NCBI RefSeq assembly: GCF_000016745.1
Contig: NC_009483.1
Span: 3,330,001-3,362,000 of the forward strand
Reading direction: 5' to 3'
Source of the DNA: Geotalea uraniireducens Rf4
Lineage (GTDB): Bacteria; Desulfobacterota; Desulfuromonadia; Geobacterales; Geobacteraceae
DNA length: 32,000 nt
The position numbers and the translations under genes are program-made. The notes under the pieces were generated by a model. It searched no databases. It was given only the letters and a program-made list of their open reading frames with translations, and was not told the origin of the DNA. This document shows, piece by piece, positions 2,705 through 19,955 of this stretch (position 1 is the stretch's first letter; each line of letters opens with the position of its first letter).

Positions 2705-3113
2705 GCAGGCAGCAAGAAGTGACTGACGATCAGCAGCCGGTGATGACGCATGCCTTAAAGACAGGAAAAACGAAGCTTCTGGGAGAGTCAAAGGCAAATC
2801 ACACCACCAAACCCGCCCAAGACAAGGAAGATTTCAGCGACGGCAACAATTTACTGACAAAAAAACCGTAAATCAGCTCTGGCGGTGACGAGAAAACTCC
2901 ATAGACCACAAAGAAAAAGCTCAACACTCGGATGGAACAGACGCGCCGATCAAGATCGCCGCTAAAGGCATGTTTTGGGGCGGCTTGCTGTTCATCCTCT
3001 AAAACGTTGAACTAAACCGCTTCGCGGTAGCTAAAAACCAATAAAGTCAAAGGCATAAAGGCGAATTAAAAGCAAATCCGAATTAAAACCGAAAATAAAC
3101 CCAAGACCCACTT

Positions 3114-3144
3114 AGGCAGCTTCTTATGAGGCTGCCTTTTTTTA
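3114..3144 (+). terminator. Stem-loop plus T-run (intrinsic-terminator-like; could also be an IS91-family end hairpin)
   Basis: AGGCAGC (3114-3120), a 10-nt loop, GCTGCCT (3131-3137), then TTTTTTT. It sits between the first IS91-type transposase and the recombinase gene. Confidence 0.5.
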
Positions 3145-3222
3145 TTGCCAAATCGAGACTACTCCTTTCATCGTACGTTTCACGGCCTGAGGGCCGAAAA
3201 ACCAAGAAAAGGAGAAACAATC

Positions 3223-4062
3223 ATGACTGACTTGCGACGAAGGATGATGGAAGATCTGCAACTTGCCGGGTACAGTGCGAGGACGCAGAAGAGCTACCTC
3301 GATGCAGTACGGGGACTGGCCAAGTATTACATGCGCTCCCCTGACCTGCTGTCGGAAGACGATGTACGCGGTTTCTTCCTGCACCTGCTCAAAGTGCGCA
3401 AAGCCGCCCGGAGCACCTTCACCATTTACCTGAGCGGTATCAAGTTCTTCTTTGAAACAACATTGCAGCGCAAGTGGAGTGTCTTTGGCATTACCAAACC
3501 GGCCAAGAGCAAACGGCTGCCGGTCGTGCTCTCCCGGAAAGAGGTCAGAACCTTACTTAAGAGCATCAAGAACCCAAGAGTAAAGATGGCGCTCACCATC
3601 ATCTATGCCTGCGGCCTGCGGCTCTCCGAAGGGGCACGGCTCAAGGTAAAGGACATCGACAGCGGCAGAAAGCTCCTCTGGGTGCGGGACGGCAAAGGCA
3701 TGAAAGACCGCTGTGTCCCCTTACCCAAAAGGCCACTGGAGCTACTGCAGACACACTATCGGCTTTTTGGCGCAGGTTCAGAGTATCTCTTCCCCTCCGG
3801 GGATGGCCACATCAACATCTGCACCATCCAGACCGCCTTCAGGGTAGCGGTAAGAAAAAGCGACATCGGCAAGACGGCCACCGTCCACACCCTGCGACAT
3901 TCCTACGCCACCCATCTTCTGGAAAACGGCGAGGACAGTGCCACCCTCAAGGAGATCCTCGGTCATAGCAGCATCACCACCACCAACATCTATCTCCACA
4001 TGACGGAGATGCTCACCGGCCGCCTCGGCAAGAGCCTGAACGAGCTGATGAGCGATCTTTAG
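3223..4062 (+). CDS. Tyrosine recombinase/phage-integrase-family protein, upstream partner of an IS91-family transposase
   Basis: I prefer the ATG at 3223, preceded by AAGGAGA, over the track start at 3145. The N-terminal SAM-like block is MMEDLQLAGYSARTQKSYLDAVRGLAKYY. Catalytic blocks are ACGLRLSE (Arg), HTLRHSYATHLL (H-x-x-R) and LGHSSITTTNIYLH (His/Tyr). The stop is 2 nt before the next transposase start. Confidence 0.85.
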   Translation: MTDLRRRMMEDLQLAGYSARTQKSYLDAVRGLAKYYMRSPDLLSEDDVRGFFLHLLKVRKAARSTFTIYLSGIKFFFETTLQRKWSVFGITKPAKSKRLPVVLSRKEVRTLLKSIKNPRVKMALTIIYACGLRLSEGARLKVKDIDSGRKLLWVRDGKGMKDRCVPLPKRPLELLQTHYRLFGAGSEYLFPSGDGHINICTIQTAFRVAVRKSDIGKTATVHTLRHSYATHLLENGEDSATLKEILGHSSITTTNIYLHMTEMLTGRLGKSLNELMSDL

Positions 4063-4064
4063 CC

Positions 4065-4611
4065 GTGGTCACGCTGGCTGATATCGTCACTGTTCATGGC
4101 GGCGACTATCTGCAGGAGTTCGGCACAAGGATACTCCCCAGCCACAAAAGGGCACTGGCAGATATTGTCGCCTGCCGCACCGAAAGCATGGGAGGACACG
4201 TCGATGAGTGTGAAGATTGCGGCCATCAACAATACCTCTACCACTCCTGCAAAAACAGAAGCTGCCCCAAGTGCCACGGCAGTGAGACCAGAATCTGGCT
4301 GACCAAGAGAGAAGGCGAACTCCTGCCGGTACGCTACTTTCATCTGGTCTTCACCCTTCCGTCAGAACTGCGGGACCCGGTACGCAAACACCAGAAGGTA
4401 CTCTACGCCATCCTCATGCAGGCAGCAGTGGAAACCCTCACCGCAATCGGACTCGATCCCAAGTTCGTCGGCGGCAAACTCGGCATCCTCGCCGTCCTGC
4501 ATACCTGGACAAGAGCTCTGGAGCACCATCCCCACGTGCATATGCTGGTCCCCGCCGGCGGACTTGATAAAGACGGCCAATGGCGGGAGTCCCGCAAGAA
4601 GTACCTCGTGC
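4065..4611 (+). pseudogene. IS91-family transposase, N-terminal fragment (split by an IS21 insertion)
   Basis: GTG start. Contains the CRTESMGGHVDECEDCGH..YHSCKNRSCPKCHG zinc region and HTWTRALEHHPHVHMLVPAGGL. The reading frame leaves the gene at 4611/4612, where the IS21 terminal repeat begins. Confidence 0.85.
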
Positions 4612-4678
4612 TGTCAATCGGCTTTGAATTTTGACCCACCATCGGCGTCCAATTTTGACCCACCCCAGGTAGTAGTTT

Positions 4679-5416
4679 TCAGTTATTGATCCTCGTTCTG
4701 ATTCTCCAGCTTTCGTTTCCGGTTTCGATTATCTCGCAGTGATGCGTGACCCTGTCCAGGAGAGCTGTCGTCATCTTGCCATCGCTGAACACCTGCGGCC
4801 ATTCACCGAAGGTCAGGTTTGTGGTGATGATGAGCGACGTCCTCTCGTAGAGCTTCGAGATCAGGTGGAACAGAAGCTGGCCGCCATTCTTGGAGAACGG
4901 CAGGTATCCCAGTTCATCAAGTATGACCAGGTCATGCCTGACCAGGTGTTCCGCCAGTTTACCACCTCTGTTGTCCAGTTTCTCCTGCTCAAGCTGGTTT
5001 ACCAGATCCAGTACGTTGAAGAACCTGGCTTTCCTTCCGTTTCTGATGCTCTGCTTGGCAATCGCTATGGCCAGGTGTGTTTTGCCGGTACCGGTGCCAC
5101 CGACCATGATGATGTTGGTGTGATCAGCGAGAAAGTTACCACTGTAAAGGTGCCTCACCTGCATCTCATTGACCGGTGAGGCCGTAAATTCAAACCGGTC
5201 CAGATCCTTATCCACGGGGAACTTCGCCAAGCCCATGCGATAGCGGATGCTTCTAGCCTTGCGCTCTGCCATCTCCGTTTCCAGAAGATCACAGAGGATC
5301 TTCTCCGGAGTGGCCCGGCTTTTTATGCCTGCCGCCAGTAGCTCGTCGAAGGTGGCCTTCATGCCGTACAGCCCAAGTGTTTCCATCGCCTCCATCAGGC
5401 GGTCACGCAGTACCAT
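4679..5416 (-). CDS. istB: IS21-family helper ATPase IstB
   Basis: Contains [19 protein letters not shown]..., Walker [12 protein letters not shown] and Walker [11 protein letters not shown] prefer the ATG at 5416 (GGGAGG 5 nt upstream), which overlaps the istA stop by 14 nt. The track start at 5458 is probably too long. Confidence 0.88.
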
Positions 5417-6923
5417 GCGCACCTCCCGAGAGGAGGCGGTCATAGCGGTAACAATCAACCACCGGGACCAGCTTGAGAAGCGGCAGTTGTGCTGACAGTT
5501 TCACTGGTTCCGGTTGCGGCTCGTCGTGTGTGCGGGACAGGATGCTGAGGATGACATCACTGCTGACCGTTTTATCGGAGAGAGCCTGCGTACAGGCAGT
5601 GGCTACTGCTTCCAGTCCGTAGCGGCTGACGACAGAGAGGATGCCGACGAACTGGCGGTCACCACCAGAACGTCCTTCCAATATTGTCCTGACTTCGCTC
5701 ATAGCTTCCGGCAGATCCCATCGTTTGAAGGGCGCTCCGTTTCGTAATGCTCCCGGCTTCTGCTCCAGAACAGCCAGATAGTGCCAGGGATCATAGATGA
5801 CTTTGTCACGGCCAAGATTGCGCTGGTGAACGCCGACAACTGTGCCATTCAGAATCATGCTGACATGGTTGGCGTATGCCCGCACCGAGACCGATTTGCC
5901 TACGGCCATAGCATTGACGCTGTAACGGTTGCGATCAAAGCTGATCAGCAGTTGCGATGAGACACGGACAAAGCTTTCCTGGTAGCCGTCGAAAGGAGAT
6001 ACCGGAAGTGCCAAGAGTTTGGTCTTCTCTTCGGCAAAGACCTGGTCAATGGTTCTCTCCTTGAACTCAGGATGCTTTGCTGTGGCGGCGTGATTGCGGC
6101 ATTCACCTTCCAGCCATTCGTTCAGCTCCTCAAGGGAGGCAAAGCGTCGGCGCTGAACGAAGAAGCGGTGCCGGACCACGCCAACCTGATTCTCCACCTG
6201 TCCCTTCTCCCAGCCGGCGGCAGGGGTACAGGCCACCGGTTCGAACAGGTAGTGGGAGGCCAGGTTCTGGAAGCGCCGGTTGAAGACCCGGTCCTTGCCC
6301 ATCAGTACCTTGGTGACAACCGTTTTAAGGTTGTCGTAGATGCCGCGTTTGCAGATACCGCCAAAGAATTCGAAAGCGCGGGAATGGGCATCAAGGACCA
6401 TCTCCAAACTCTCACGGGTATACGCGACACAGAACGGCTTGCGGCTGTGGCACAGACGGAAATGGGATACCTTCACTTCTACCGGCATACCACCCAGCTC
6501 CACCTTCTCATAACTCCAGTCGAACTGGAAGGCGTCACCGGGTTCCCATTCGAGAGGGATGAAGGCTTTGACTAAAGCCGTGCCATCGTCTTCCTTCCAA
6601 GTGCCCACATAACGACGTACAGCATCATAGCCTCCGGTATACCCTTCCCGCTGCAACTGCTCAAAAAGAATCTGGGCGCGACGACGATGTTTAACGGGTT
6701 TATCACGATCTTCCTTCAACCATTCTGACAGCCGTTCAACAAAAGAGCCGAGCTTGGGGCGGGGCTGTTCACTCCGCTCATACTTTTGGTCGGTTATGCC
6801 GCTACGGATAATGGATCGGACGGTGTTGCGGGACAGGTTGAACTCGCGGGTTATCTCACGAATTCCCTTGCCGTCTCTAAAATGAGCCTGACGGACTTTA
6901 CGGATGGTTTCCACGTTCAGCAT
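5403..6923 (-). CDS. istA: IS21-family transposase IstA (506 aa)
   Basis: N-terminal HTH ([20 protein letters not shown]). DDE-type core typical of IstA. Overlaps the downstream istB start. Confidence 0.9.
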
Positions 6924-7047
6924 CTCCTTTGTTTCTCCTCTCTCTGATGAAATCAGAGAGTATGGAGCAGAGTGCTGGGGTGGGTCAATTTTGGACGCCG
7001 ATTATGCTCGAAAGTGGGTCATTATTGCACGCCGATCCACATCGTGC

Positions 7048-7619
7048 CGGTGAAAGCCCTGTCAAAGGGCTTTCGCTACCGGTTCATGAAGATGGCCAGA
7101 AAAGCACTTCCCGAGGTGATCTTTCCTGGGCAAGTCTGGGACAAGGAGTGGGTGGTCTTCTGCAAACCGACCTTCAACCGGGCAAAAAAGGTGTTCCATT
7201 ACCTTGGCAGATACGTCCACCGCATCGCCATTACCAATAACCGTATTCTTGCCCTGGATAACGGTCAGGTCGTCTTCCGCTACCAGAATTCCGACACCAG
7301 AGAGTGGAAGAATATGCGGCTACCGGTAAAGGAGTTCCTGCGTCGCTACCTGCAGCACGTCCTGCCGCAGGGGTTTCACAAGGTCCGCTACTACGGACTT
7401 TTAAGTCCAGGAAATAGAGTAACCCTGAAACGGTTGCAGCTCCTGCTTGCAGAGAGAAGAAAGACAAAAGAAGAAAAGAACGAAGAGACTTCTCCGCCAC
7501 CGGCAGAGCGCCGCTGTCCCTGCTGTGAAGAGGGGACAATGGTGATAATCAGCTGGCTGCCGCGTAAAGCGAGAAGCCCGCCGCAAGGAAGGGCACGGAC
7601 AATAACGACAAAACAGTGA
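7048..7619 (+). pseudogene. IS91-family transposase, C-terminal fragment
   Basis: Continues the 4065-4611 frame exactly once 4612-7047 is removed: ...KKYLV-P-VKALSKGFRYRF... Contains YLGRYVHRIAITNNRI (double Tyr) and a C-terminal CPCCEEG. The reconstructed protein is about 372 aa. Confidence 0.85.
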
Positions 7620-7852: not shown

Positions 7853-7918
7853 GTCCAACACGACTCTATGCGGCGGCTCCGCTTCGCTACGCACCGCATA
7901 AAGTCTTATTCGTTATGT
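7853..7918 (+). other. attC-like site A
   Basis: GTCCAAC (RYYYAAC, 7853-7859) ... CTCTATGCGGCGG / GCACCGCATAAAG imperfect 13-nt stem ... GTTATGT (7912-7918). The following cassette ends in GCATAAC, which is complementary to its GTTATG start. The outer stem pairs poorly, and the site could instead belong to the IS91-type element end. Confidence 0.4.
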
Positions 7919-7937
7919 CAGGAGAGAAAGAAAAGAA

Positions 7938-8558
7938 ATGTCTGAATATGAAGATTTCGTCAAAGATTTCCCTAAACGTTGTCAAGAGCTTTTAAACTTG
8001 GCAGAACGCCCTGCTTTAGACGCGGGCAGAGAAGTAACCTTGATGCTTATGGTGGCGGCGACTGCCCTATTTATTCCATTTGAGCGGCTGAAACCCGAAG
8101 GACGACAAGATCATCCGTCTAAGGACAAAGAGCGATTCCCACAGGCCGCTACTGAATTAAAAACATTACTCGAAAAACCTTTTACCGCGTCTGATCTTTT
8201 TGACAAAGAAGCAAAGTCATGGGCCACAGGTAGACTAAAGTCATTAGATGGGGCACCCGACGATTGGCCTGAGCTTCAGAGGTTAAAGCCAATATCTAGC
8301 GAAAAGAAAGTAAATTCGATTTTTAAGACAATACGAAATTCTTTGGCACATGGGAACCTGTATACAAGAGGTGGTAGTGAAATAAAATCTATCATATTTA
8401 TATCAACCATTGAGGATAGAGATAAGATCATCGGATTTCAGTTTGTCAGTGTATCTCCAGCTGATTTTAGATTATTTCTAACGCGTTGGTTCGAATTTTT
8501 AGATAAATTCCACATCGATCAGAAATGTGCTTTTAACGTAGTAATAAAATCTACGTAA
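7938..8558 (+). CDS. HEPN-motif protein (206 aa), first gene of a two-gene cassette
   Basis: AT-rich ORF with an AGGAGAGAAAG region upstream. ...NSIFKTIRNSLAHGNLY... gives R133-x4-H138, the Rx4-6H HEPN signature in an R-N-x-x-x-H context, within a predicted helical protein. The family assignment is unverified. Confidence 0.6.
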   Translation: MSEYEDFVKDFPKRCQELLNLAERPALDAGREVTLMLMVAATALFIPFERLKPEGRQDHPSKDKERFPQAATELKTLLEKPFTASDLFDKEAKSWATGRLKSLDGAPDDWPELQRLKPISSEKKVNSIFKTIRNSLAHGNLYTRGGSEIKSIIFISTIEDRDKIIGFQFVSVSPADFRLFLTRWFEFLDKFHIDQKCAFNVVIKST

Positions 8559-8620
8559 CCATTGATGCGATGGTTGGTATTATTTTCACAGGCAATAATA
8601 AATTTATTGGAGTGCATTAA

Positions 8621-9161
8621 ATGTTTCCGTTATCAGTTGGTGATTGGGGTAAGCATAGAACTCAAGGAAAAGTTTTAATTTCTGCCGTTAATCGATATGA
8701 AGTTTATTTTGATACTACTGGCGGAGATACAATTAGAATTTCAATGGAGCGAGCAATAGAAATGATTACTCCTCTAGGAATTGAAACTATTGATAAGAGG
8801 GGAAATATAAAAGCCAATGAGATTGAAGTTGATAATACTCTTAATTATCAAGAACATAAGCGTATGCAAGTGCCCATTCGTGAGTGGAGTAGCAGGCCAT
8901 ATCAAACTGAAGCACTTAAATCACTAAGCAGTGCTTTTAATAAATATAACCAAGTCATCCTTGCCCTTCCAACTGGTAGTGGTAAGACGTTTGTTGCCGC
9001 AAAATGGATTTGCGATCATATAATTAATTGCGGAGGTAAAGTTATTTGGGTTGCTCATAGAACTGAACTTCTTGATCAAGCCTATGCAACTTTTTTGAAA
9101 TTACTGCCCCCGCATTTATCTTCTGAAATTACTTGGTGGGCCGGGGGAAGAGAGAAGAATC
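8621..9161 (+). pseudogene. SF2 (ResIII/XPB-like DEAH) helicase, N-terminal fragment (split by ISL3)
   Basis: An unassigned ~90-aa N-terminal region, then PYQTEAL (Q-motif-like) and Walker A LPTGSGKT (8972-8989). The frame is broken at 9161/9162 by the ISL3 inverted repeat. Confidence 0.85.
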
Positions 9162-10503
9162 GGCTCCTCGACGAATTGAGTGGGTAGCCTGGGCCGGGTT
9201 GATGTAAGATAGGCCACCATCACTCAGCCTGGAGGTTAGTAATCGCTATGAATCCTGAAGATCTTTTTGGTGCTGCTCTTGGAATTGCCATCCCGTGGAA
9301 GGTTACCTCTGTTGACTTCAACAAGAAGTCAAGTCGTTTGGACATAACCATCGACTTCCAGCGGGGAGCCACCTTTCCCTGTCCGGTCTGCGGAACGTTG
9401 TCACCAGTCCATGACACCACGGAGAAAGAGTGGCGGCATCTGAATTTCTTCCAGTACGAAGCCTACCTTCATGCGCGTGTTCCACGGGTAAAGTGCCCTA
9501 ACAGCGACTGCGGCGTGAAGTTGGTCCAGGTACCCTGGGCTCGCGCAGGCTCAGGATTTACGCTGCTGTTTGAGGCCCTGGCCATGACCATGGCTCGTGA
9601 TTTGCCGGTGAAGGTCATGAGCAGGCTGTTTGCCGTTACCGATACCCGTCTATGGCGGTTGATTCAATCCTATGTCGAGAAGACAAGGGCCGCAGAAGAC
9701 TTCTCCGAGGTGAAGAGGGTCGGTGCGGATGAAACCTTTGCCGGGCGCAGTCATGACGAGAAATTCGTCACCTTCTTCTTCGACCTCGACATGCATAAGC
9801 TCTTGTTCGGCACGACGGGAAAGGACAACGAAACAGTCAAGAGCTTCGTCGCGGACCTTAAGTCACATGGCGGCGATCCTGATAGCATCACAGACGCTGC
9901 TATTGACATGTCCAAGGCATTCATAAAGGGTGTCAAAGAGCAGTTGCCCCATGCCGTGGTCACCTTCGATAAATTCCACGTCATCAAGCTTATGAACGAT
10001 AAGCTTAGTAAGATAAGGGCTCAAGAAGCCAGGTTATTTCCTGAAATCCTGAAAAAGAGCAGAAACCTGTTCCTCAAAAATCCAGAGAACCTGACACCGG
10101 AAGAGGAACAGCGCCTGGATGCCATTATCACCAGTCAAAGCTTAAGGAGTACGGAAGCTTACATGCACAAGCTGAACCTTCAGAACGTCTATTTTGCTTC
10201 AAGCCGAACGGAGGCAGAAACCCTGTTGACCAAATGGCATCGGAAAGCCGCCGCAAGCTCAATCCAACTCATCAAGAACATGGCCGAATCTGTAAAAGAG
10301 CATTGGGATGGCATTCTGGCACATTTTGAAAGCGGCCTGACTAGCGGCTTCATTGAGGGCATCAACAGCCTAATTCAATCAGCCAAAACTCGGGCACGAG
10401 GCTATCGGAATCCTGACAACTTGATCTGCATGGCTTATCTGGTTGCAGGCAAGCTCAACCTAAAGTCGCTATTCCCTCTACCCACTTGATTCGTTGCAGA
10501 GCC
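9162..10503 (+). mobile_element. ISL3-family insertion sequence (1342 bp)
   Basis: The left inverted repeat is GGCTCCTCGACGAATTGAGTGGGTAG. The reverse complement of the right one is GGCTCTGCAACGAATCAAGTGGGTAG. An 8-bp direct repeat GAAGAATC lies at 9154-9161 and 10504-10511. Confidence 0.88.
9248..10489 (+). CDS. ISL3-family transposase (413 aa)
   Basis: N-terminal zinc-finger region (FPCPVCG...VKCPNSDCG) followed by a DDE domain. The length and layout are typical of ISL3. Confidence 0.9.
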   Translation: MNPEDLFGAALGIAIPWKVTSVDFNKKSSRLDITIDFQRGATFPCPVCGTLSPVHDTTEKEWRHLNFFQYEAYLHARVPRVKCPNSDCGVKLVQVPWARAGSGFTLLFEALAMTMARDLPVKVMSRLFAVTDTRLWRLIQSYVEKTRAAEDFSEVKRVGADETFAGRSHDEKFVTFFFDLDMHKLLFGTTGKDNETVKSFVADLKSHGGDPDSITDAAIDMSKAFIKGVKEQLPHAVVTFDKFHVIKLMNDKLSKIRAQEARLFPEILKKSRNLFLKNPENLTPEEEQRLDAIITSQSLRSTEAYMHKLNLQNVYFASSRTEAETLLTKWHRKAAASSIQLIKNMAESVKEHWDGILAHFESGLTSGFIEGINSLIQSAKTRARGYRNPDNLICMAYLVAGKLNLKSLFPLPT

Positions 10504-10511
10504 GAAGAATC

Positions 10512-12055
10512 CTTATGGTAGGATAGTTCTCGTTTCGATCATGGCCGCAAAAACATTCCCATCTATAACAACAGATATTTTAGTCATTGATGAAGCTCAC
10601 CATGAACCAGCACAGACCTATCAAGCCTTTCAGGATAAAATTGAATTCAAAAAGAATTTGGGGCTAACTGCAACACCCAAGAGACTAGATGCAAAGGTGC
10701 TAAATTACGAAGCCATTGCATATCAGAAAACCTTTATGTCTCTTGTACATGAAAAATGGCTCGCTTGCCCAGACCCTGTCTTGTCGCAAACAGGCATGGT
10801 CTTTGATCTTGATGTAAGAATGGATGATTTTAGCGAAGAATCGCTTACTTCACTTGATAACGATCCTCGCAACGATTTCATAGTTAAGCACTGGATGGAC
10901 AATTCGGAAAAATATGGGAAAACATTGGTTTTTGCCCTTAATCGTGATCATGCAAGACGACTTACAGAATCTTTCAGGAAAGCAATTCCTGGGAAAATGA
11001 TCGATTATATTGTTTCTGGAGAAGGTAATCTGTCAGATAGAAATACAAAGGTATCGTTATTTAGAAACGGCATGATTGATGTTTTGATAAATTGTAAAAT
11101 TTTTACTGAAGGGTTTGACTGTCCTGATGTAAAAACTATTTTTCTTACAAGACCAACGTTATCTGTTTCTTTGTACCTCCAAATGATTGGTAGAGGTACA
11201 AGAATAACTCCAACAAAAACATCTTTTTACTTGGTTGATTTCCAGGATGATCTCGGTAAATTCCAAAATCAACTTATTAAACCATGGGTTTTAGGCGATG
11301 AGCTAAACAATGAATTAATTACTACTGCAAATAAGAACATTGTCGAAGATGTAGAAGTTGATCCAATATCTGATATTGATGAAGATTTACCTAACTGGTT
11401 AAAAGAGGACATAACCTTATCTCCAATAGATTTAAATTTGATCGCAGGTTATGTGATATTTAAGCATGACAGTGGCCGTGAGGATGGATTTCTTGTTCAC
11501 GTCGATGATGAAGATCTGTTTTTGAATGCATGGGTTGAATTAAACAGTAAAAAAGACAATTGTTGCGCAGATGAATTAGGAATATTAGCATTAAATATGT
11601 ACAAACTACTATCTACTAATAGATTGTCTCTTCAAGGATTTGTTAGTGCTGCTATTGCCCTTGCAAGTGGTAATTCCGAATACATTAAATTGAATTCTCC
11701 AAAAACATTAACTACAATTTTTGATTTTCTGAACGACATATATATTTCTCAAGAGGAAGAAAGTGACTTGAAGAAGCATTCATCAGATATTTATGCAATT
11801 ATTAAATTCACTATCGATGAAATTGATGAAGGCCTATCATGGAGTCAAGTTTTTGAAAATGAAAAATACGTATTTGATAAAGCAACAAACGAACTCACCA
11901 AGAATAATCATTTACGCGGGCTTGAGTTAAAAAAGAAAATAGCTTGTATTTACAATGAGATATTAATTGATACGCATCTTCTGGAATTTGAATGGGAACG
12001 ATTCTGTTTGAATATGATTAAAGATAAATTTTCATGCATTTTATATTTGCCGTGA
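10512..12055 (+). pseudogene. SF2 DEAH helicase, C-terminal fragment
   Basis: In frame with 8621-9161 after deleting 9162-10511: ...WWAGGREKN-P-YGRIVLVSIMAAKTF... Contains VIDEAHH (DEAH, 10589-10600), LGLTATPKR (motif III) and QMIGRGTRI (motif VI). An unassigned ~260-aa AT-rich C-terminal region follows. Confidence 0.85.
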
Positions 12056-12141
12056 TCTCTTCCGCATTTTACAGAAAACCTGTGTACTCATCTGCACAGA
12101 GATCCTCTTAAATACTATGAACTCTATAATGCAAAAAAATC

Positions 12142-12200
12142 GCATAACAAACGCATGCACCTGACCACAAAACCGTCAGGTGATGCTTGCCCCGTTGGCA
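12142..12200 (+). other. attC-like site B (59 bp, family 1)
   Basis: GCATAAC-aaacgc-ATGCACCTGAC-cacaaaacc-GTCAGGTGAT-gcttgcccc-GTTGGCA. There is one bulged G in the left arm. It is homologous to site E, with compensatory changes (CTGAC/GTCAG in B versus CTGCC/GGCAG in E). Confidence 0.7.
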
Positions 12201-12221
12201 GTCGAACGGAAAGGAGGATAA

Positions 12222-12848
12222 ATGTATTGCACTCAATGCGGCGCACAAGCCGTCTCAGAAGCTAAGTTTTGTGCTAAATGTGGTGAGGCTTTAGGTACAA
12301 GTTCAGTAATAACTGAACCGGAACTTCCACTTTCACTTGCATCAATGCAGAATTCAAGCCCTGCCACTGATGACGCAAAGTGTGGACCAACTGGAGTCGG
12401 TGGCTGGCTAAAGTTGCTTGTCGTTGGAATGCTGGTGCTTGGACCGTTGATGGGGGCAGGCCGAATTGAAAATGATTTCATGATGGCAGAACATCAAAAT
12501 CCCAATATTACGTCATTGAATGAATGGAAAACCTTTAAAAATGCGACATGGTGGACATTTTACATAGTTGCCGCTATGAGCTTTTATGGCGGTTGGGGTT
12601 TGGCTCGGGGGCGCGACGTGTCAGTTGTAAATAGAGCCAAAGCTATCTTGTGGCTAACTGGCCCTGTTGCCTCAATTAACTTGGCAATAATTATACCATT
12701 CATAATTTTTGGTAAAACTGAAGCAGGCAATCCGCAATTTATTGGCGGATTCTTTGCGTCTGTAGTTGGAGCGATTATTTGGACGGTTTATTTGTCAAAA
12801 TCGAAACGGGTTCGTAACACTTATTGCAACTCTAAACATTTTATGTAA
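12222..12848 (+). CDS. Zinc-ribbon plus multi-pass membrane protein (DUF2569-like), 208 aa
   Basis: AGGAGG RBS. The N-terminal CTQCG...CAKCG is a zinc ribbon. A linker follows, then GVGGWLKLLVVGMLVLGPL and three further hydrophobic helices. Confidence 0.7.
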   Translation: MYCTQCGAQAVSEAKFCAKCGEALGTSSVITEPELPLSLASMQNSSPATDDAKCGPTGVGGWLKLLVVGMLVLGPLMGAGRIENDFMMAEHQNPNITSLNEWKTFKNATWWTFYIVAAMSFYGGWGLARGRDVSVVNRAKAILWLTGPVASINLAIIIPFIIFGKTEAGNPQFIGGFFASVVGAIIWTVYLSKSKRVRNTYCNSKHFM

Positions 12849-12884
12849 CCCCTAACTTCGGAGTACCCCCAAGTGGAGGTTAAT

Positions 12885-13235
12885 ATGAAACTGACTCAAT
12901 TTTCTCAAATAGAGTACAGCCGAATTCTGGATCTAAATGGCGCTCGCAATAAAGGCTATAGTCAATCTGAGTGTGAGAATATCCTTGTGGCAGCAGGAGC
13001 AACCACCATGCAGGCAAAAAATGGTGCTTATGTCTATTTGCACCATGGGTCAAAGATTTCAGCAACTCGAAGAGCATCTCGCTCAGAATATGAGCACCTC
13101 CTAAATGATTTTGAAGGAAGAGAGAAAGAATCTAAAGAATGTATCCAGCATTTGGAAAACATGGGCTTTAGCTACGGGCAAGCAAAAACTGCAGTGTATA
13201 ATTATCGTGTGAAGCACGGATTAATTGGTAAGTGA
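12885..13235 (+). CDS. Hypothetical 116-aa protein with an internal duplicated G(Y/F)S..QAK..Y.Y module
   Basis: I prefer the ATG at 12885, 4 nt after GGAGG (12876-12880), over the GTG at 12873. It lies 36 bp downstream of the membrane-protein gene, with no attC-like site between them. Confidence 0.6.
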   Translation: MKLTQFSQIEYSRILDLNGARNKGYSQSECENILVAAGATTMQAKNGAYVYLHHGSKISATRRASRSEYEHLLNDFEGREKESKECIQHLENMGFSYGQAKTAVYNYRVKHGLIGK

Positions 13236-13287
13236 GGTGATTAGGGGAGTCCCGGAGGGATCATCCCTTGATGATAAAAAGGCGAAA

Positions 13288-13360
13288 TCCCAACCAGGCA
13301 GTTGGACACCGGTCGGGCGGAAAGGCTGCCCGAACGGGTCAACTGCGCGGCCCGTTGGCG
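13288..13360 (+). other. attC-like site C (73 bp, family 2)
   Basis: TCCCAAC-cag-GCAGTTGGACACCGGTCGGGC-ggaaaggct-GCCCGAACGGGTCAACTGC-gcggccc-GTTGGCG. The left arm has bulged G and A. It is homologous to site D, with the inner stem switched (GTCGGGC/GCCCGAA in C versus CCAGCCC/GGGCTTG in D). Confidence 0.75.
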
Positions 13361-13438
13361 AAAAAAAGTCTAGGAGTCCAGGAACGTATTTCGATCAGCA
13401 GCAAAGAGTTCGTCACAGACCGTTAAGGGAGTATTTCG

Positions 13439-14758
13439 TTGGGAACAGAGATTGAGTTTGAAATCGGAGGGGCCAGCCTTAGCTGGAGCAAAAATTCACG
13501 CGGCATGGATCACGGTATGCTTTTCCAAGCGAAGGACCGGAAACGCCTCCACTCCGACCAGATTGACTATGATTACTTCACTGAAAATGGTCAGGATCCC
13601 GGCCTTATGGAAATGGCTCTTTGTAGGCCGCTCAAGGAGATCGTTCCTCGGATTGAACTCCTTGGTTTCACACTCAATGAGGTAGAACGCGAGTACAAGA
13701 AGTGCACTGAAAGCTGGCTTGAACAATGCCAGATGATGGCTCATGAGGTGGAAGAATTTTCAGAGCCGGATGTGATGACGTTCCAGGAGTTTTGTGCATT
13801 TGTTGCAGCGCACCCTATCCAAACTCTAGACCATTCATTTATCTCTTCATTCGATAATGCGGAAAGCGAGCGGAAAATCCAAGGCAGATTTGACGCCATG
13901 CCGGAAATACGAAGAATTCCTTATTTCCCATCAGCTATCGATAACACGTACTCTGAGCGCAGCTATTTTGCCGGCTTAGTCAATTTTATGCACCCTTACT
14001 CCACTCTCCGCCTTCTAGCGCAAAACATGTCAAACCTGAATGCGGACGTTGTGTGGCAGTATGGACCGTTGGTAGAAAATGGCTGGGCAAGCGAAAGTGA
14101 ATTTATACCTGATGCTCGAAGGAACCAGACTTTTCTGATAGCAACTGAAGGCAGTTCCGATGTCCATATTATCAAGCACGCTCTGTCACTGTTGAAGCAT
14201 GAAATCGCTGACTTTTTCAGGTTTATTGACGTGAGTGAGCGGCATCCATTCTCAGGTACAGGGAACTTAGTCAAGTTTGCTGAAGGGCTTGTTAAGATTG
14301 ATGTGCATAATCAGGTAGTTTTTGTGCTCGACAACGACGCCGAGGGTTTCGAAGCATATCAACGCATTTCGGATATGAACCTGCCCCCTAATATGCGAGC
14401 AATGATGTTACCGACATTGGAAGAGTTCCGCGCCTTTCCAGCTCGAGGTCCGGAAGGCGTGACTAATACTGATATTAATGGACGTGCGGCCGCGATTGAG
14501 TGCTATCTGGACCTTAACCTTCATGGTTTCGAGCCGGCAAAAGTAGTGTGGACTAACTACAAGAAGGAACTCGACCTCTACCACGGTGCTTTAGAATTCA
14601 AAGATTCCTATACCAAAGCATTTTTAAAGCAGACTGCCGAAACAGTATCGGCGGGAAACTATTCGGTGCACAAACTTCAAGTTGTGCTCGACGCACTTAT
14701 CGCTGAATGCTGTGCTGTCACCATAGAGGTAGGAAGAACAGGTCTAGGAGAGATATGA
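13439..14758 (+). CDS. Unknown N-terminal domain fused to a TOPRIM-like (OLD/DUF4435-type) domain, 439 aa
   Basis: TTG start giving MGTEIEFEIGGASLSWSKNS... The TOPRIM signature is a conserved Glu in FLIATEGSSD (E237, 14147-14149) and DxD in VFVLDNDAEG (D298/D300, 14330-14338). The N-terminal ~220 aa resembles my memory of the module called 'HEPN/Toprim-associated N-terminal domain'. There is no ATPase domain. Confidence 0.6.
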   Translation: MGTEIEFEIGGASLSWSKNSRGMDHGMLFQAKDRKRLHSDQIDYDYFTENGQDPGLMEMALCRPLKEIVPRIELLGFTLNEVEREYKKCTESWLEQCQMMAHEVEEFSEPDVMTFQEFCAFVAAHPIQTLDHSFISSFDNAESERKIQGRFDAMPEIRRIPYFPSAIDNTYSERSYFAGLVNFMHPYSTLRLLAQNMSNLNADVVWQYGPLVENGWASESEFIPDARRNQTFLIATEGSSDVHIIKHALSLLKHEIADFFRFIDVSERHPFSGTGNLVKFAEGLVKIDVHNQVVFVLDNDAEGFEAYQRISDMNLPPNMRAMMLPTLEEFRAFPARGPEGVTNTDINGRAAAIECYLDLNLHGFEPAKVVWTNYKKELDLYHGALEFKDSYTKAFLKQTAETVSAGNYSVHKLQVVLDALIAECCAVTIEVGRTGLGEI

Positions 14759-14791
14759 GGGGTCAACTATACAAATGATTTGAAGCGATGA

Positions 14792-14863
14792 TCCCAACAA
14801 GACAGTTGGACACCGCCAGCCCGAAAAGACTGGGCTTGCGGGTCAACTGCCGAGCCGTTATGC
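14792..14863 (+). other. attC-like site D (72 bp, family 2)
   Basis: TCCCAAC-aag-ACAGTTGGACACCGCCAGCCC-gaaaagact-GGGCTTGCGGGTCAACTGC-cgagcc-GTTATGC. See site C for the compensatory changes. Confidence 0.75.
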
Positions 14864-14983
14864 AGAAAATAAAACTTCCAATGATTTGGCGATTTCAACT
14901 ATTTCCTTGAGTTTAGAAAGTCGCTGCTTTTTGTTCCGACACTCGGAATAAAGTTCACAAATAAGAGCAAGACATTCAATTTC

Positions 14984-15628
14984 ATGCCTTCCAGGGAAAT
15001 TCGGACTATGCGTTACGCGCTCGACATCCAGAAAAGACAAATCGAACCTTCCTACTCCGGCCAGAGAGCTATTTGCCCCGGTTGCGGAGGAGAAGTTATT
15101 GGAAAGTGCGGATATATTGTTTCTGACCATTGGTCTCACCTTTCTGGGTCAGACTGCGACCCTTGGCATGAACCACTAACAAAGTGGCATCTGGAGTGGC
15201 AAAACATCCTTAAAAAATACCGAAATGCACAGATAGAGGCTGTAATTACAAAGCATGACATCTCTCATCGTGCAGACGCTGCGCTGCCAGACGGAACAAT
15301 TTACGAACTGCAACATTCAGGAATCTCACCAGAGGAAATCCATGAAAGAGAACAATTTTACGGCAAAAAACTGGTATGGGTGTTTGACGCAATTGAAGCC
15401 TATGTATCCGGGCGAATTGATTTAAGAGAGAAAGAAAACGGAAACTATACTTTTCGCTGGAAGCACCCCCGAAAATCCATAGCCTATGCACAAAGGAAGG
15501 TGTTTTTAGACTTCGGACTAGGCGAATTATTTGAACTTGAGTGGATGTCAAAAGAAACTCCTTGTGGTGGCAAAGGAAAACTAATTCAGTCTGCCACGGT
15601 TGCCGATTTCACTATATTTTCTGACTAA
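14984..15628 (+). CDS. CoiA-like competence-family nuclease (zinc ribbon plus PD-(D/E)xK-like), about 206-214 aa
   Basis: Contains CPGCGGEVIGKCGYIVSDHWSH, then HRADAALPDGTIYELQHSGIS (the D...E.Q.S block typical of CoiA-like proteins). The start is either 14984 or, perhaps more likely, ATG 15008 (MRYALD...). Confidence 0.6.
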   Translation: MPSREIRTMRYALDIQKRQIEPSYSGQRAICPGCGGEVIGKCGYIVSDHWSHLSGSDCDPWHEPLTKWHLEWQNILKKYRNAQIEAVITKHDISHRADAALPDGTIYELQHSGISPEEIHEREQFYGKKLVWVFDAIEAYVSGRIDLREKENGNYTFRWKHPRKSIAYAQRKVFLDFGLGELFELEWMSKETPCGGKGKLIQSATVADFTIFSD

Positions 15629-15638
15629 GAATGAGATG

Positions 15639-15698
15639 GCATAACCAGAAAAATGCACCTGCCCTAAAACCGGCAGGTGATTTTCCGAACCGTTGGAT
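15639..15698 (+). other. attC-like site E (60 bp, family 1)
   Basis: GCATAAC-cagaaa-ATGCACCTGCC-ctaaaacc-GGCAGGTGAT-tttccgaac-c-GTTGGAT. R' fits GTTRRRY. The preceding cassette starts with GTTATGC, which is complementary to this GCATAAC. Confidence 0.75.
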
Positions 15699-15824
15699 TA
15701 TTAAACTGAAATGGAATTATCTTCATGGGCGATTTCGCAAAGCAAGTACGACATAATAAAGTTCCTGGTCCAAATAAACTTAAGTTTGAACGAGCGGACT
15801 GGGAATCAATTCTGAAAAAGAATG

Positions 15825-17149
15825 GAGGGTGTAAAAAGGTTTGTGTAAATGGTCATTAGGGGGTACACCAAGTTACCCTAAGGAGATCACATGACTATTA
15901 ACACCGACGTAATCGACGACCTGCTCAAACATTACAAGACCCCCGAAGAGATTCTAGGGGAAAACGGGCTGCTGAAGCAATTGACCAAGGCTGTTCTTCA
16001 GCGGGCGCTCCAGGCTGAAATGACACTGCATCTCGGCCACGAGAAGCATGCTTCCGTTTCCGCCAAGGGTGGCAATGCACGCAATGGCTCGTCGGCAAAG
16101 ACCATCAAAGGCGATTTCGGCACCATGCCGATTGAGGTCCCTCGTGACCGGGATAGCAGCTTTGAACCAGTCATCATTCCCAAGGGCCAAACCCGGTTCG
16201 CCGAGTTCGATGATAAGATTATCTCTCTGTACTCCCGCGGGCTTACCACTCGTGAGATCCAGGGACACTTGGAGGAAATCTACGGTGTTGAGGTATCCCC
16301 CGCCCTGATTTCAATAGTGACTGAAGCAGTAGCTGAAGAGGTCAAAACCTGGCAGAACCGCCCGTTGGATGCGCTTTATCCCATCGTCTACATGGATGCC
16401 ATCAGGGTCAAAGCCAGAGGCAATGGCCATGTTGTGAACAAGGCTGTCTATCTGGCCATCGGCATCAACACAGACGGCGCCAAAGAAGTTCTGGGAATGT
16501 GGGTTTCCGAGAACGAAGGTGCCAAGTTCTGGCTTCAGGTTGTTACCGAACTAAAGAACCGTGGTGTCCAGGACATCTTCATTGCCTGCGTTGACGGCCT
16601 AAAGGGGTTCCCTGAGGCCATAGAGACCGTTTTCCCGAACACTCAGGTCCAGCTTTGCATCGTCCACATGGTACGCAACTCTTTGAAATTCGTCTCGTGG
16701 AAGCAGCGTAAAGAGGTCGCTGCTGATCTGAAGGTAATCTACCAGTCGGCGACAGCAGAGCAGGCCGAAATGGAACTGACGGCATTTGAGGCGAAGTGGG
16801 ATAAAACGCACCCGACTATCGGCCAGTCATGGCGCCGGAACTGGGAGCAAATCACGCCTTTTTTCGCTTATCCTGCTGATATCAGAAAGGTTATCTATAC
16901 CACCAACGCCATTGAATCCCTGAATATGTCGCTCAGAAAGGTGACCAAAAACCGGGGTTCGTTTCCCAATGACGAGGCAATGCTCAAGCTACTTTATCTG
17001 GCGCTGAAAAACATCGCGAAGAAATGGACCCTGCCGATCAGGGACTGGAAGGCTGCGATGAATCGCTTTTCCATCCTTTTTGAAGACAGAATGCCAAGCT
17101 ATTAAAAACCGGGAACCAAAACCATTTACACAAAACTATTGACAGGCCC
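15825..17149 (+). mobile_element. IS256-family insertion sequence (1325 bp)
   Basis: The left end is GAGGGTGTAAAAAGGTTTGTGTAAATGG. The reverse complement of the right end is GGGCCTGTCAATAGTTTTGTGTAAATGG. An 8-bp direct repeat AAAGAATG lies at 15817-15824 and 17150-17157. Confidence 0.85.
15891..17105 (+). CDS. IS256-family (mutator-type) transposase, 404 aa
   Basis: Contains LLKQLTKAVLQRALQAEMTLHLG..., YMDAIRVK, FIACVDGLKGFPEAI and TTNAIESLN. These are canonical IS256 transposase blocks. Confidence 0.92.
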   Translation: MTINTDVIDDLLKHYKTPEEILGENGLLKQLTKAVLQRALQAEMTLHLGHEKHASVSAKGGNARNGSSAKTIKGDFGTMPIEVPRDRDSSFEPVIIPKGQTRFAEFDDKIISLYSRGLTTREIQGHLEEIYGVEVSPALISIVTEAVAEEVKTWQNRPLDALYPIVYMDAIRVKARGNGHVVNKAVYLAIGINTDGAKEVLGMWVSENEGAKFWLQVVTELKNRGVQDIFIACVDGLKGFPEAIETVFPNTQVQLCIVHMVRNSLKFVSWKQRKEVAADLKVIYQSATAEQAEMELTAFEAKWDKTHPTIGQSWRRNWEQITPFFAYPADIRKVIYTTNAIESLNMSLRKVTKNRGSFPNDEAMLKLLYLALKNIAKKWTLPIRDWKAAMNRFSILFEDRMPSY

Positions 17150-17254
17150 AAAGAATGATATAGACGAAGAAGACATGCGTCTTGCAATTGCAGGAGGGAA
17201 AATGGGGTCAGGCTTCCAAGTTGACAAGTTGAAGAAAGGAGGTATCATTCCAGC

Positions 17255-17551
17255 ATGGCACGTAAACCACGCATCCATCTCCCCGGTGGACTTTACCACG
17301 TCATTTTCCGGAGTAACGGCGGTCAGCCCGTTTTCCTCACTGAAGATGACCGTTACCGTTTCTACCTCCTCCTCCAGGAAGGGACTTGTCGGTTTGGCTA
17401 CCGCGTTCACGCTTTCTGTCTCATGACCAATCATATCCATATCGCCTTGCAGGCCGGCGATATTCCCCTATCACGCGGCATGCACAATCTCTCATTCCGC
17501 TATACCCGCTGGATCAACTGGCGGGAAAAAAGAACCGGCCATCTTTTCTAA
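17255..17551 (+). pseudogene. Y1 (IS200-like/REP-associated, RAYT-type) transposase, N-terminal 98-aa fragment
   Basis: MARKPRIHLPGGLYHVIFRSNGGQPVF...AFCLMTNHIHIALQ (HUH)...FRYTRWINWREKRTGHLF, then a stop where homologues continue QGRYK... The truncation point abuts a 21-bp inverted repeat. Confidence 0.75.
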
Positions 17552-17557
17552 AGTCCT

Positions 17558-17578
17558 CTGGGGTCGGACCAAGCTAAC
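17558..17578 (+). repeat. Left copy of a 21-bp perfect inverted repeat (CTGGGGTCGGACCAAGCTAAC)
   Basis: Exact reverse complement of 19813-19833. Together the two copies bracket the second Y1 transposase gene. Confidence 0.9.
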
Positions 17579-19088: not shown

Positions 19089-19817
19089 TTGAAATTCGCA
19101 AAGGATAGACGGCGCTGGCATTCCTGGCTCTTTGAAGCCAAAAAGCGTTTTGGCTTGAGGATTCTCAACTACGTGGTTACCTCGAATCATATCCACCTTT
19201 TGGTGATCGATAGTGGGCCGGATGTTATTCCAAAGAGCCTTCAACTGATTGCCGGGAGGACTGCCCAGGAGTTCAATCATCGAAAAGACCGTAAGGGAGC
19301 ATTCTGGGAGGACCGTTATCATGCAACGGCTGTTGAGCGGAATGAACATCTGATTCGCTGCCTTGTTTACATCGATCTGAATATGGTTCGTGCCGGTGTG
19401 GTAAGCCATCCCGTTGAGTGGGAGATGAACGGATACAACGAGATCCAGAATCCGCCTGAACGATACGGGGTGATTGATATGTCCGGACTACGGAACCTTT
19501 GCGGATTTACAGACCCCGAGCAATTTGCAGAGCAGCATAGGCAGTGGGTTCATGAGGCAATCAACAATGGCAAAAATCAGCGGGAAAGTTGCTGGACAGA
19601 GAGCATCGCTGTTGGCAGTTCAGGTTTTATTGAAGAAACCAAGGCCAAGCTTGGCATAAAGGCGGCAGGGAGAAGGATCGCAGAACAACAGGAAGACCGG
19701 TTTGTACTAAAAGAAGAACATGCACCTTACAACGCCGGTTTTCGCAACCAAATGGGACTTCTAAGCCCAGAAAACAGCTATTTTTTGGACGTTTCTCTTT
19801 TAGATTTCGCGAGTTAG
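19089..19817 (+). pseudogene. Second Y1/RAYT-like transposase, C-terminal fragment
   Basis: In frame with 17667-17746 after removing the IS and one TSD: ...HKKEFL-L-KFAKDRRRW... Contains VVTSNHIHLLV (HUH) and GAFWEDRYHATAV (catalytic Tyr block). The stop codon TAG (19815-19817) lies inside the right 21-bp inverted repeat. Confidence 0.8.
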
Positions 19818-19833
19818 CTTGGTCCGACCCCAG
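19813..19833 (-). repeat. Right copy of the 21-bp perfect inverted repeat
   Basis: GTTAGCTTGGTCCGACCCCAG is the reverse complement of 17558-17578. Confidence 0.9.
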
Positions 19834-19843
19834 GCCCCCCTCC

Positions 19844-19907
19844 GTTTGCCCTGACACCCTGTGTTTGCCCTGACACCCTGTGTTTGCCCTGACACCCTGT
19901 GTTTGCC
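19844..19907 (+). repeat. Tandem repeat, 19-bp unit GTTTGCCCTGACACCCTGT x3 plus a 7-bp partial copy
   Basis: Three perfect copies at 19844-19862, 19863-19881 and 19882-19900, then GTTTGCC running directly into the left arm of attC-like site F. Confidence 0.9.
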
Positions 19908-19955
19908 ATTGACCTGCCCTAACAACCCGGCAGGTCAATGGCTGGCCCGTTAGCG
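19905..19955 (+). other. attC-like site F (family 1, lacking a recognisable R'')
   Basis: GCCATTGACCTGCC-ctaacaaccc-GGCAGGTCAATGGC is a perfect 14-bp stem, followed by tggccc-GTTAGCG. The stem and loop are homologous to sites B and E (..CACCTGCC-ctaaaacc-GGCAGGTG..). The RYYYAAC side is replaced by the 19-bp tandem repeat. Confidence 0.5.

Follow-up and report, generated by a model that had tools for sequence, protein, structure and literature searches.

A HEPN/Toprim-NTD1 protein with a probable Toprim domain travels as a single-gene integron cassette in Geotalea uraniireducens Rf4

The HEPN/Toprim-NTD1 domain, an alpha+beta module of ~240 amino acids (aa), was described in 2013 by Anantharaman et al. 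The domain was reported to be fused alternatively to two families of HEPN RNases, to a TOPRIM nuclease, or to an Mrr-type restriction endonuclease (REase), and an abortive-infection-like role was argued for the systems featuring it (PMC3710099). Toprim proteins of known defence systems include P2 OLD, AriB of PARIS and the retron Eco2 protein, all tRNases (PMC12445682, PMC12409363, PMC12916289), and the Eco2 Toprim is gated without an ATPase (PMC12916289). The pairing of a variable sensor with a nuclease effector has been shown experimentally for single-protein bacterial Schlafens (PMC13056530). Integron cassettes are known, from published integron-defence papers, as reservoirs of defence systems. 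The protein analyzed here is encoded by a 439-aa open reading frame (ORF) of Geotalea uraniireducens Rf4, located in a stretch of 32,000 nucleotides (nt) referred to as the window (NC_009483.1, positions 3,330,001 to 3,362,000 of the forward strand). The ORF joins HEPN/Toprim-NTD1 to a Toprim-like nuclease domain, and is the sole gene of one integron cassette, bracketed by two attC-like sites. Features are listed in Table 1, and coordinates count from the first letter of the window.

The focal protein is a member of the PF18871 HEPN/Toprim-NTD1 plus TOPRIM family. Residues 1–230 match positions 1–223 of the 223 of the HEPN_Toprim_N model (273.7 bits, cutoff 25; E 1.9e-81), and the model is matched by all the 112 relatives, 27–60% identical to the window protein, in which conservation has been measured. 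An earlier note on this DNA had likened the N-terminal ~220 aa to a module predicted by comparative genomics to travel with HEPN and Toprim domains. The module is indeed PF18871, known from comparative genomics alone (PMC3710099). An indexed search returned 2,129 matches, the best 120 of which are nearly all 425–450 aa long and carry PF18871. An exhaustive profile search gave 1,676 clusters at 50% identity, the full-length ones measuring ~390–440 aa and featuring both halves. The focal protein is 42–74% identical to many annotated members, called by NCBI "HEPN/Toprim-associated domain-containing protein", and the distribution of the family across phyla is patchy.

The architecture is therefore not new, as it was listed in 2013 (PMC3710099) and has since entered Pfam and the NCBI annotation; in domains and length (~390–440 aa) the protein itself does not differ from the family described then. 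What is added here is the context, i.e. a mobile cassette caught in two arrays and a homologue beside an integron integrase, together with the proof of cassette mobility, a quantified absence of conserved partners, a set of conserved residues including K388, E354 and D358, and a marked asymmetry between the putative sensor and effector halves. Experimental work on the PF18871-Toprim family was not found in the literature searched, a full-text search for the domain name giving PMC3710099 only, and the same literature holds no experimentally characterized stand-alone system of this architecture, in agreement with the earlier note. The HEPN/Toprim-NTD1 family is not mentioned in the integron-defence papers and their supplements.

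The ORF starts with a TTG codon, 7 nt after a strong Shine-Dalgarno motif (AAGGGAG, 13425–13431, plus strand), and homologues feature the same M-G-T start. A promoter scan revealed no sigma-70-like promoter between the cassette junction and the ORF start. The flanking repeats (13287–13365 and 14791–14869) are copies of a ~75-nt element, 71% identical over 79 nt. Each is organized as an R''-L''...L'-R' imperfect palindrome, and the L''/L' stems feature one extra-helical base (CAGTTgGAC versus GTCAACTG); the arrangement of one ORF followed by such a site is that of an integron cassette. The bottom strands fold as bulged hairpins better than shuffled sequences do (z -2.27 for site C, -2.53 for site D). 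Both sites score 11.5 in an ad hoc attC scanner calibrated on shuffles, 0.4% of which reach a score of 8. Site C is part of the cassette upstream, and the focal cassette, to which site D belongs, has its 5' junction at the G/TT core of site C.

Comparison with a second contig shows that the gene moves as an integron cassette. This contig, L082, comes from another, unrelated sequencing run; it is 97.0% identical to the window over 13354–14861 only, and has unrelated flanks. The first shared nucleotide is the G of the GTTGGCG core upstream, and similarity stops inside the downstream GTTAT core. The exchange of blocks bounded by G/TT is a signature of IntI-mediated cassette exchange. Because similarity is confined to the core-to-core span, and the flanks are unrelated, the cassette is mobile. 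The earlier note had the ORF filling the whole of a cassette set at 13361–14863; attC anatomy and the L082 block both agree with this, and the L082 boundaries place these coordinates right to ~7 nt. The two copies of the cassette show a ratio of nonsynonymous to synonymous substitution rates (dN/dS) of 0.27, hence the ORF is a real gene under selection. A homologue with 68% identity, in a metagenome-assembled genome of the Desulfobacteraceae, occupies the first cassette position adjoining a genuine IntI (370 bits to TIGR02249, cutoff 265); it is preceded by an attI-like GTTGGGC and followed by an attC of its own.

The C-terminal half carries the two acidic motifs that the earlier note had located, ATEGSSD (14141–14161; E237 codon 14147–14149) and LDNDAEG (14327–14347; D298 codon 14330–14332, D300 codon 14336–14338). 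Residues E237, G238, D298, D300, G303, P325, L357, W371 and K388 (codon 14600–14602) are invariant in the 112 relatives, and T236, D241 (99%), N299 (99%), N347, E354 and D358 are conserved in at least 96% of them. E354 and D358 lie within an AIECYLDL motif of the C-terminal extension. By their conservation, N347, E354, D358, W371 and K388 are probably additional active-site or substrate-binding residues. The motifs E-G-x-x-D and D-x-D-x-x-G are reportedly the two hallmarks of Toprim domains in the form found in DnaG and OLD, an observation said to go back to Aravind et al. in 1998. The glutamate motif of the superfamily (E-G-x-x-[DE]) and the DxDxxG motif are both present here. In AlphaFold models of the whole protein (predicted local distance difference test, pLDDT, 84; predicted template modelling score, pTM, 0.86) and of the C-terminal half alone (pLDDT 94.8, pTM 0.90), E237-G238-x-x-D241 directly follows strand 232–236 (beta1). 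D298-N299-D300-x-x-G303 follows strand 292–297 (beta3), and L324-P325 follows beta4.

Profile comparisons point in the same direction. A Pfam scan of the 112 members gave 24 matches besides PF18871, and 23 of these belong to the Toprim clan (Toprim_2 in 12, Toprim in 5, Toprim_4 in 4, OLD-like_TOPRIM in 1, Toprim_3 in 1; best E 1.1e-4), a set which is suggestive. The best match of the family profile in the PDB is the Toprim domain of the T7 gp4 primase (E 0.5), in a collinear alignment which places TEG onto TEG, and FDNDAEG...LP onto FDMDEAG...LP. An hhalign comparison with the OLD Toprim profile, built on a narrow alignment of the enterobacterial YbjD subfamily, gave E 0.12 with the DxD and the following LP in register; the family profile set against one YbjD sequence by itself gave no match. 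Weak Foldseek matches (E 0.01–0.15) include topoisomerase II (E 0.02–0.05), primases, RloB-like and "Toprim-like" proteins, and those in BFVD are again primases, topoisomerases, RloB-like and "Toprim-like" proteins. Judged by its motifs and predicted topology, the C-terminal half is likely to be a Toprim domain.

This Toprim is very divergent, and falls outside the OLD, GajA and AriB subfamilies, since the protein features neither an ABC (ATP-binding cassette) ATPase nor a DUF4435 nor a PADLOC match, and OLD-type chains are not among the leading fold matches. The comparison "as in OLD, GajA and AriB" made in the earlier note thus holds as an analogy of motifs; as membership it does not, the weak sequence affinities leaning to the primase-type Toprim_2 and T7 gp4 rather than to OLD. 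With OLD (P2 Old, Class 1) and GajA the focal protein shares the E-G-x-x-[DE] and D-x-D-x-x-G motifs and a conserved lysine, as expected of a predicted Toprim metal nuclease, and like Class 1 OLD proteins it occurs singly, in association with mobile elements and defence loci. In contrast, it lacks the fused ABC ATPase which defines OLD, having PF18871 at the N-terminus instead. The OLD-like_TOPRIM model is matched by one of the 112 relatives, below threshold, and OLD and GajA chains are missing from the leading Foldseek matches. Unlike in Gabija, no UvrD-like helicase GajB lies beside the gene. As in PARIS AriB, the effector would be a Toprim without a fused ATPase, presumably off until triggered, and the tRNase analogy is plausible (PMC12409363). 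It differs from AriB in having no DUF4435 match at E <= 10 in Pfam and no PADLOC AriB match, and AriA-like genes were found in only 2 of 142 neighbours. Control would be exerted in cis by the fused N-terminal domain (NTD), not by sequestration on an ATPase. Retron Eco2, a fusion of reverse transcriptase and TOPRIM (PMC12916289), similarly combines in one polypeptide a regulatory or sensing module and a Toprim effector with no ATPase; the focal system has no reverse transcriptase, non-coding RNA or multicopy single-stranded DNA (msDNA), and its N-terminal module comes from the unrelated family PF18871. A conserved nuclease core with a more variable sensor domain, encoded by a single gene, is also a feature of pSlfn5 (PMC13056530) and Shedu, which carry a Schlafen or PD-(D/E)xK nuclease rather than a Toprim, and a different sensor domain.

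The two halves of the protein differ markedly in conservation. Median identity of the 112 relatives to the window protein is 22% over residues 1–174, and 47% over residues 231–400; mean column entropy measures 2.9 bits in residues 1–174, 1.8 in the Toprim core (231–330), and 2.1 in the extension (331–400). Residues 175–230 are a better-conserved linker which packs onto the nuclease half. R71 is the only conserved polar residue of the NTD, all the others being confined to the C-terminal half, and the NTD is consequently devoid of an obvious active site. Searches of PDB and BFVD with the whole model revealed no structural relative of the NTD at E <= 0.001, and the leading PDB matches of the whole model recur when the C-terminal half is used alone. 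On this conservation pattern, residues 1–174 are probably a sensor or regulatory module.

The absence of an ATPase, pointed out in the earlier note, extends beyond the focal locus. No P-loop or ABC domain was detected in the protein by Pfam, NCBIfam or PADLOC, and no ATPase gene is adjacent. Homologues 42–68% identical were analyzed at 80 reference-genome loci in Alpha-, Beta- and Gammaproteobacteria, Desulfobacterota, Actinomycetota, Acidobacteriota and Verrucomicrobiota, clustering the ORFs found within 6 kb. A conserved partner gene was not found in this interval, the largest non-self cluster being present at 7 of the 80 loci, and no cluster holds a fixed position except inside small lineages. 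The 142 immediate neighbours, residing within 400 nt, were scanned with Pfam. Most frequent are Phage_integrase (5), DUF488 (4), type IV secretion system (T4SS) coupling proteins (3) and HipA (3). AriA/AbiLi-like AAA_21 ABC ATPases are two, so that homologues do not always accompany an ATPase; constant co-occurrence with one is what the earlier note would have counted against its reading. A helicase of the GajB type is not conserved beside homologues. Defence-type neighbours include AbiEii, AbiH, PIN_12, HipA, a type I REase, DzbA and a CBASS phospholipase effector, along with Ppl, mad genes and several PADLOC PDC candidate families. By this raw listing, neighbourhoods are of the mobile-element and defence-island type. 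Apparent tandem paralogues beside homologues at two loci turned out to be HipA kinases, and were discarded.

The integron is one of several vehicles of the family. The flanks of genome homologues were analyzed with the scanner, and attC-like sites were found in 2 of 77 on the downstream side and in 6 of 78 on the upstream side; the view that the family is generally cassette-borne was thus rejected, and the family must use many vehicles, the integron being one of them. Four Pseudomonas loci share a conserved 158-aa DUF488 protein encoded after the homologue and, before the homologue, a strong AAC...GTT palindrome scoring 14.5–16.5 in the attC scanner. These upstream matches may be attC sites or other palindromes, such as repetitive extragenic palindromic (REP) elements. 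A full-length homologue, 46% identical (WP_050296630.1), resides at 6001–7338 in the E. coli IncX7 conjugative plasmid NZ_CP067270.1, a 35-kb waste-water plasmid, ~0.7 kb from a divergent AbiEii/AbiGii-family toxin gene. DNA nearly identical to that of the window was not found in plasmids.

We lean, by a modest degree, towards reading the focal gene as a stand-alone sensor-effector nuclease acting by abortive infection, carried on a promoterless single-gene cassette. Residues ~231–400 would form a divergent, Toprim-fold phosphodiesterase dependent on divalent metals, with E237/D241 and D298/D300 in the active site, probably aided by D264, E354, D358 and K388, and two-metal chemistry would be used, as in OLD (PMC10568477). 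The NTD (~1–174, joined via 175–230) would keep the nuclease off until a cue of infection, possibly a phage protein or an abnormal nucleic acid, is detected. Once activated, the nuclease would cut an essential nucleic acid, and the infection would be aborted, with no need of an ATPase or other partner. The target may be DNA or, by analogy with P2 OLD, PARIS AriB and retron Eco2, tRNA, which is as plausible a target as DNA because all three are tRNases. Gating by the NTD is proposed because a variable N-terminal module is combined with swappable effectors, as in the Schlafens, and because Eco2 provides a precedent. We infer nuclease activity, auto-inhibition by the NTD, trigger, substrate and defence phenotype from the domain composition, the conservation pattern and these parallels. 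The broader proposal, that the PF18871-Toprim family is a widespread, autonomous, ATPase-independent immune nuclease, in which a new-fold NTD senses phages and gates the active site, is tentative, and we give it slightly less than an even chance.

Several results weigh against the reading of the focal gene as a defence nuclease. PADLOC v2 and NCBIfam have no model matching the 439-aa protein. In the window protein Toprim_4 reaches 14.6 bits (cutoff 25) and Toprim_2 13.7 bits (cutoff 22.1), and a significant Toprim match is absent in Pfam, hhalign, the PDB profile search and Foldseek. The PDB contains no significant match to the protein by sequence or by profile, and Foldseek searches of PDB and BFVD returned nothing at E <= 1e-3 either with the whole model or, despite the better model, with the C-terminal half alone; the leading matches are generic three-layer alpha/beta (Rossmann-like) folds. 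The Toprim assignment of the earlier note is retained on its motifs, predicted topology and consistent sub-threshold matches, and finds no single significant profile or fold match. Of the profiles which the note had named, HEPN_Toprim_N is matched, DUF4435 gave no match, and OLD Toprim remained at E 0.12. The sensor role suggested for the NTD rests on conservation and on published fusion patterns, and when plasmids were searched by tblastn for the isolated NTD, only the same family and a copy truncated by an insertion sequence (IS) were returned, with no fusions to other effectors. Expression is uncertain, the cassette being promoterless, and the array riddled with ISs and devoid of a visible IntI or Pc.

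Alternatively, the protein might be a selfish nuclease involved in conflicts between elements, acting as a toxin or as an exclusion factor by which plasmids, integrative and conjugative elements (ICEs) and cassette arrays compete with other mobile DNA, or stabilizing its element by post-segregational killing. The Toprim subunit of Wadjet acts against plasmids. Homologues reside on 55 plasmids, 22 of which are predicted conjugative, and T4SS coupling proteins, integrases and HipA, PIN and AbiE toxin-type genes lie nearby. Phages are nearly devoid of the gene, the single "phage" match being a frameshifted family member in an unverified faecal contig. A conserved cognate antitoxin or small partner ORF was nevertheless not found, and a lone gene that was toxic at all times could not be maintained. 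Triggered immunity would account just as well for the sensor-effector asymmetry, and plasmids carry many defence systems too. A role in conflicts between elements is considered unlikely relative to triggered defence.

A nuclease that depends on an unlinked ATPase or other factor for its control in trans, like an AriB separated from AriA, is improbable. Well-studied OLD-type defence Toprims all use an ABC ATPase (PMC10568477), and two AriA/AbiLi-like genes do lie beside homologues. Two of 142 neighbours are few, however, and among the 80 loci, drawn from many phyla, no cluster is conserved within 6 kb. A one-gene cassette and unrelated plasmids are vehicles which would part the gene from any specific partner; moreover, the protein has a regulatory-looking domain of ~230 aa of its own, and retron Eco2 works without an ATPase. 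Equally improbable is a housekeeping or mobile-element function in DNA processing (primase-like, repair, recombination), or a non-catalytic Toprim like RecR, with no role in conflicts: the weak affinities to Toprim_2 and T7 gp4 rather than OLD and the non-specific fold search would suit it, but zinc-binding or primase RNA-polymerase subdomains were not detected, DnaG is not among the leading fold matches, homologues are patchily distributed and horizontally mobile, their neighbourhoods vary and show no link to replication genes, the full catalytic acidic set and the invariant lysine are conserved, and fusions of the NTD to HEPN RNases and to an Mrr REase have been reported (PMC3710099).

The defence role remains a prediction, and the idea dates from 2013; the focal gene is a good, though unsurprising, candidate for single-gene anti-phage defence. 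Were the prediction correct, a family of more than 1,600 clusters (50% identity), spread in many phyla and carried by conjugative plasmids of E. coli, Klebsiella, Aeromonas and Yersinia, would join the single-gene defence systems. Toprim nucleases would then be controlled also without an ATPase, in a fifth mode to be set beside the fused ABC ATPase, the ATPase scaffold of PARIS, the SMC-like complex of Wadjet and the msDNA cage of Eco2. A function would be assigned to a "sensor" domain which is found with HEPN RNases and with an Mrr-type restriction nuclease as well, and an immune nuclease would prove compact enough for one integron cassette to carry it. The same cassette being caught in two arrays supports the notion of cassette arrays as banks of defence genes.

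Table 1. Position of the focal cassette, its gene and other features in the window
Feature	Position	Strand	Remarks
439-aa ORF, HEPN/Toprim-NTD1 plus Toprim-like nuclease domain	13439..14758	+	
HEPN_Toprim_N (PF18871), residues 1–230	13439..14128	+	Pfam; alpha+beta
Toprim-like core, residues 231–330	14129..14428	+	beta1-alpha-beta2-alpha-beta3-alpha-beta4 order
C-terminal extension, residues 331–439	14429..14755	+	two beta-hairpins plus helices
Upstream attC-like site C	13287..13360	+	R'' TCCCAAC, L'' CAGTTGGAC, variable stem-loop, L' GTCAACTG, R' GTTGGCG (13354–13360)
Own attC-like site D of the cassette	14791..14863	+	R'' TCCCAAC, L'' CAGTTGGAC, L' GTCAACTG, R' GTTATGC (14857–14863)
Focal mobile cassette	13355..14857	+	G/TT to G/TT; one gene plus own attC
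Further attC-like sites	~7853–7920, 12140–12203, 15640–15700, 19905–19955		same orientation
Zinc-ribbon plus DUF2569 membrane protein	12222–12848		
120-aa protein	12873–13235		no Pfam match
HEPN protein	7938–8558		pEK499_p136-like, sub-threshold, 21.7 bits
DEAD/ResIII helicase, split	8621–9187 and 10541–12055		ISL3 insertion
ISL3 element	transposase 9248–10489		inverted repeats 9160–9187, 10478–10505
Mutator/IS256-family element	transposase 15891–17105		inverted repeats 15830–15853, 17121–17144; interrupts array
DDE_Tnp_1 element	17558–17578 and 19813–19833 (inverted repeats)		perfect 21-nt inverted repeats; interrupts array
IS91-family Y2 transposase	1529–2704		intact
Tyrosine recombinase	3145–4062		integron-integrase-like SAM_4 plus catalytic domains
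Second IS91 transposase, split	4065–4634 and 6972–7619		split by IS21 element
IS21 element	istA 5403–6923, istB 4679–5458	both minus	

The presence of several attC-like sites in the same orientation marks the region as a cassette array. GC content of the array is low (32–48%, versus 52–64% in the flanks), and many IS elements are inserted in it. IntI was not found in the 32-kb window, which thus lacks the integrase/attI part of an integron, and the array is either an attC cluster devoid of integrase or one cut off by IS elements. The tyrosine recombinase of the window was rejected as IntI, as it scores 198 bits, below the TIGR02249 cutoff of 265, and sits with IS91 genes. It is part of a nest of mobile elements at 1529–7619.

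The focal gene is flanked upstream by the DUF2569 gene and the 120-aa ORF, and downstream by a CoiA_N-like gene. The two upstream ORFs make a cassette (12222–13235), with no attC between them, which is absent beside the focal gene in L082. The protein of the next cassette (14984–15700) is 214 aa long and CoiA_N-like at the N-terminus (E 2.9e-7), and the cassette has a short attC-like end at ~15640–15700. The same CoiA_N-like gene follows an identical focal gene in the SRA-derived contigs L086 and L087; a Cap4-nuclease-like gene occupies this place in L082.

Other cassettes of the array look defence-like. The one at 7853–12203, lying between attC-like sites, carries two genes, a HEPN protein followed by a DEAD/ResIII helicase; by its gene content it looks like a defence-type pair inactivated by an IS. 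Between the IS256-family and DDE_Tnp_1 elements lies, at ~17250–17540 on the plus strand, what looks like a truncated ORF for an IS200/RAYT-type transposase. Directly past the IS end, within 19838–19955, a 19-nt unit (CCCTGACACCCTGTGTTTG) is repeated three times in tandem. These units are followed by a perfect 14-nt hairpin (19905–19942), ending with CCGTTAGCG, and the site is probably an attC with a disturbed R'' side.

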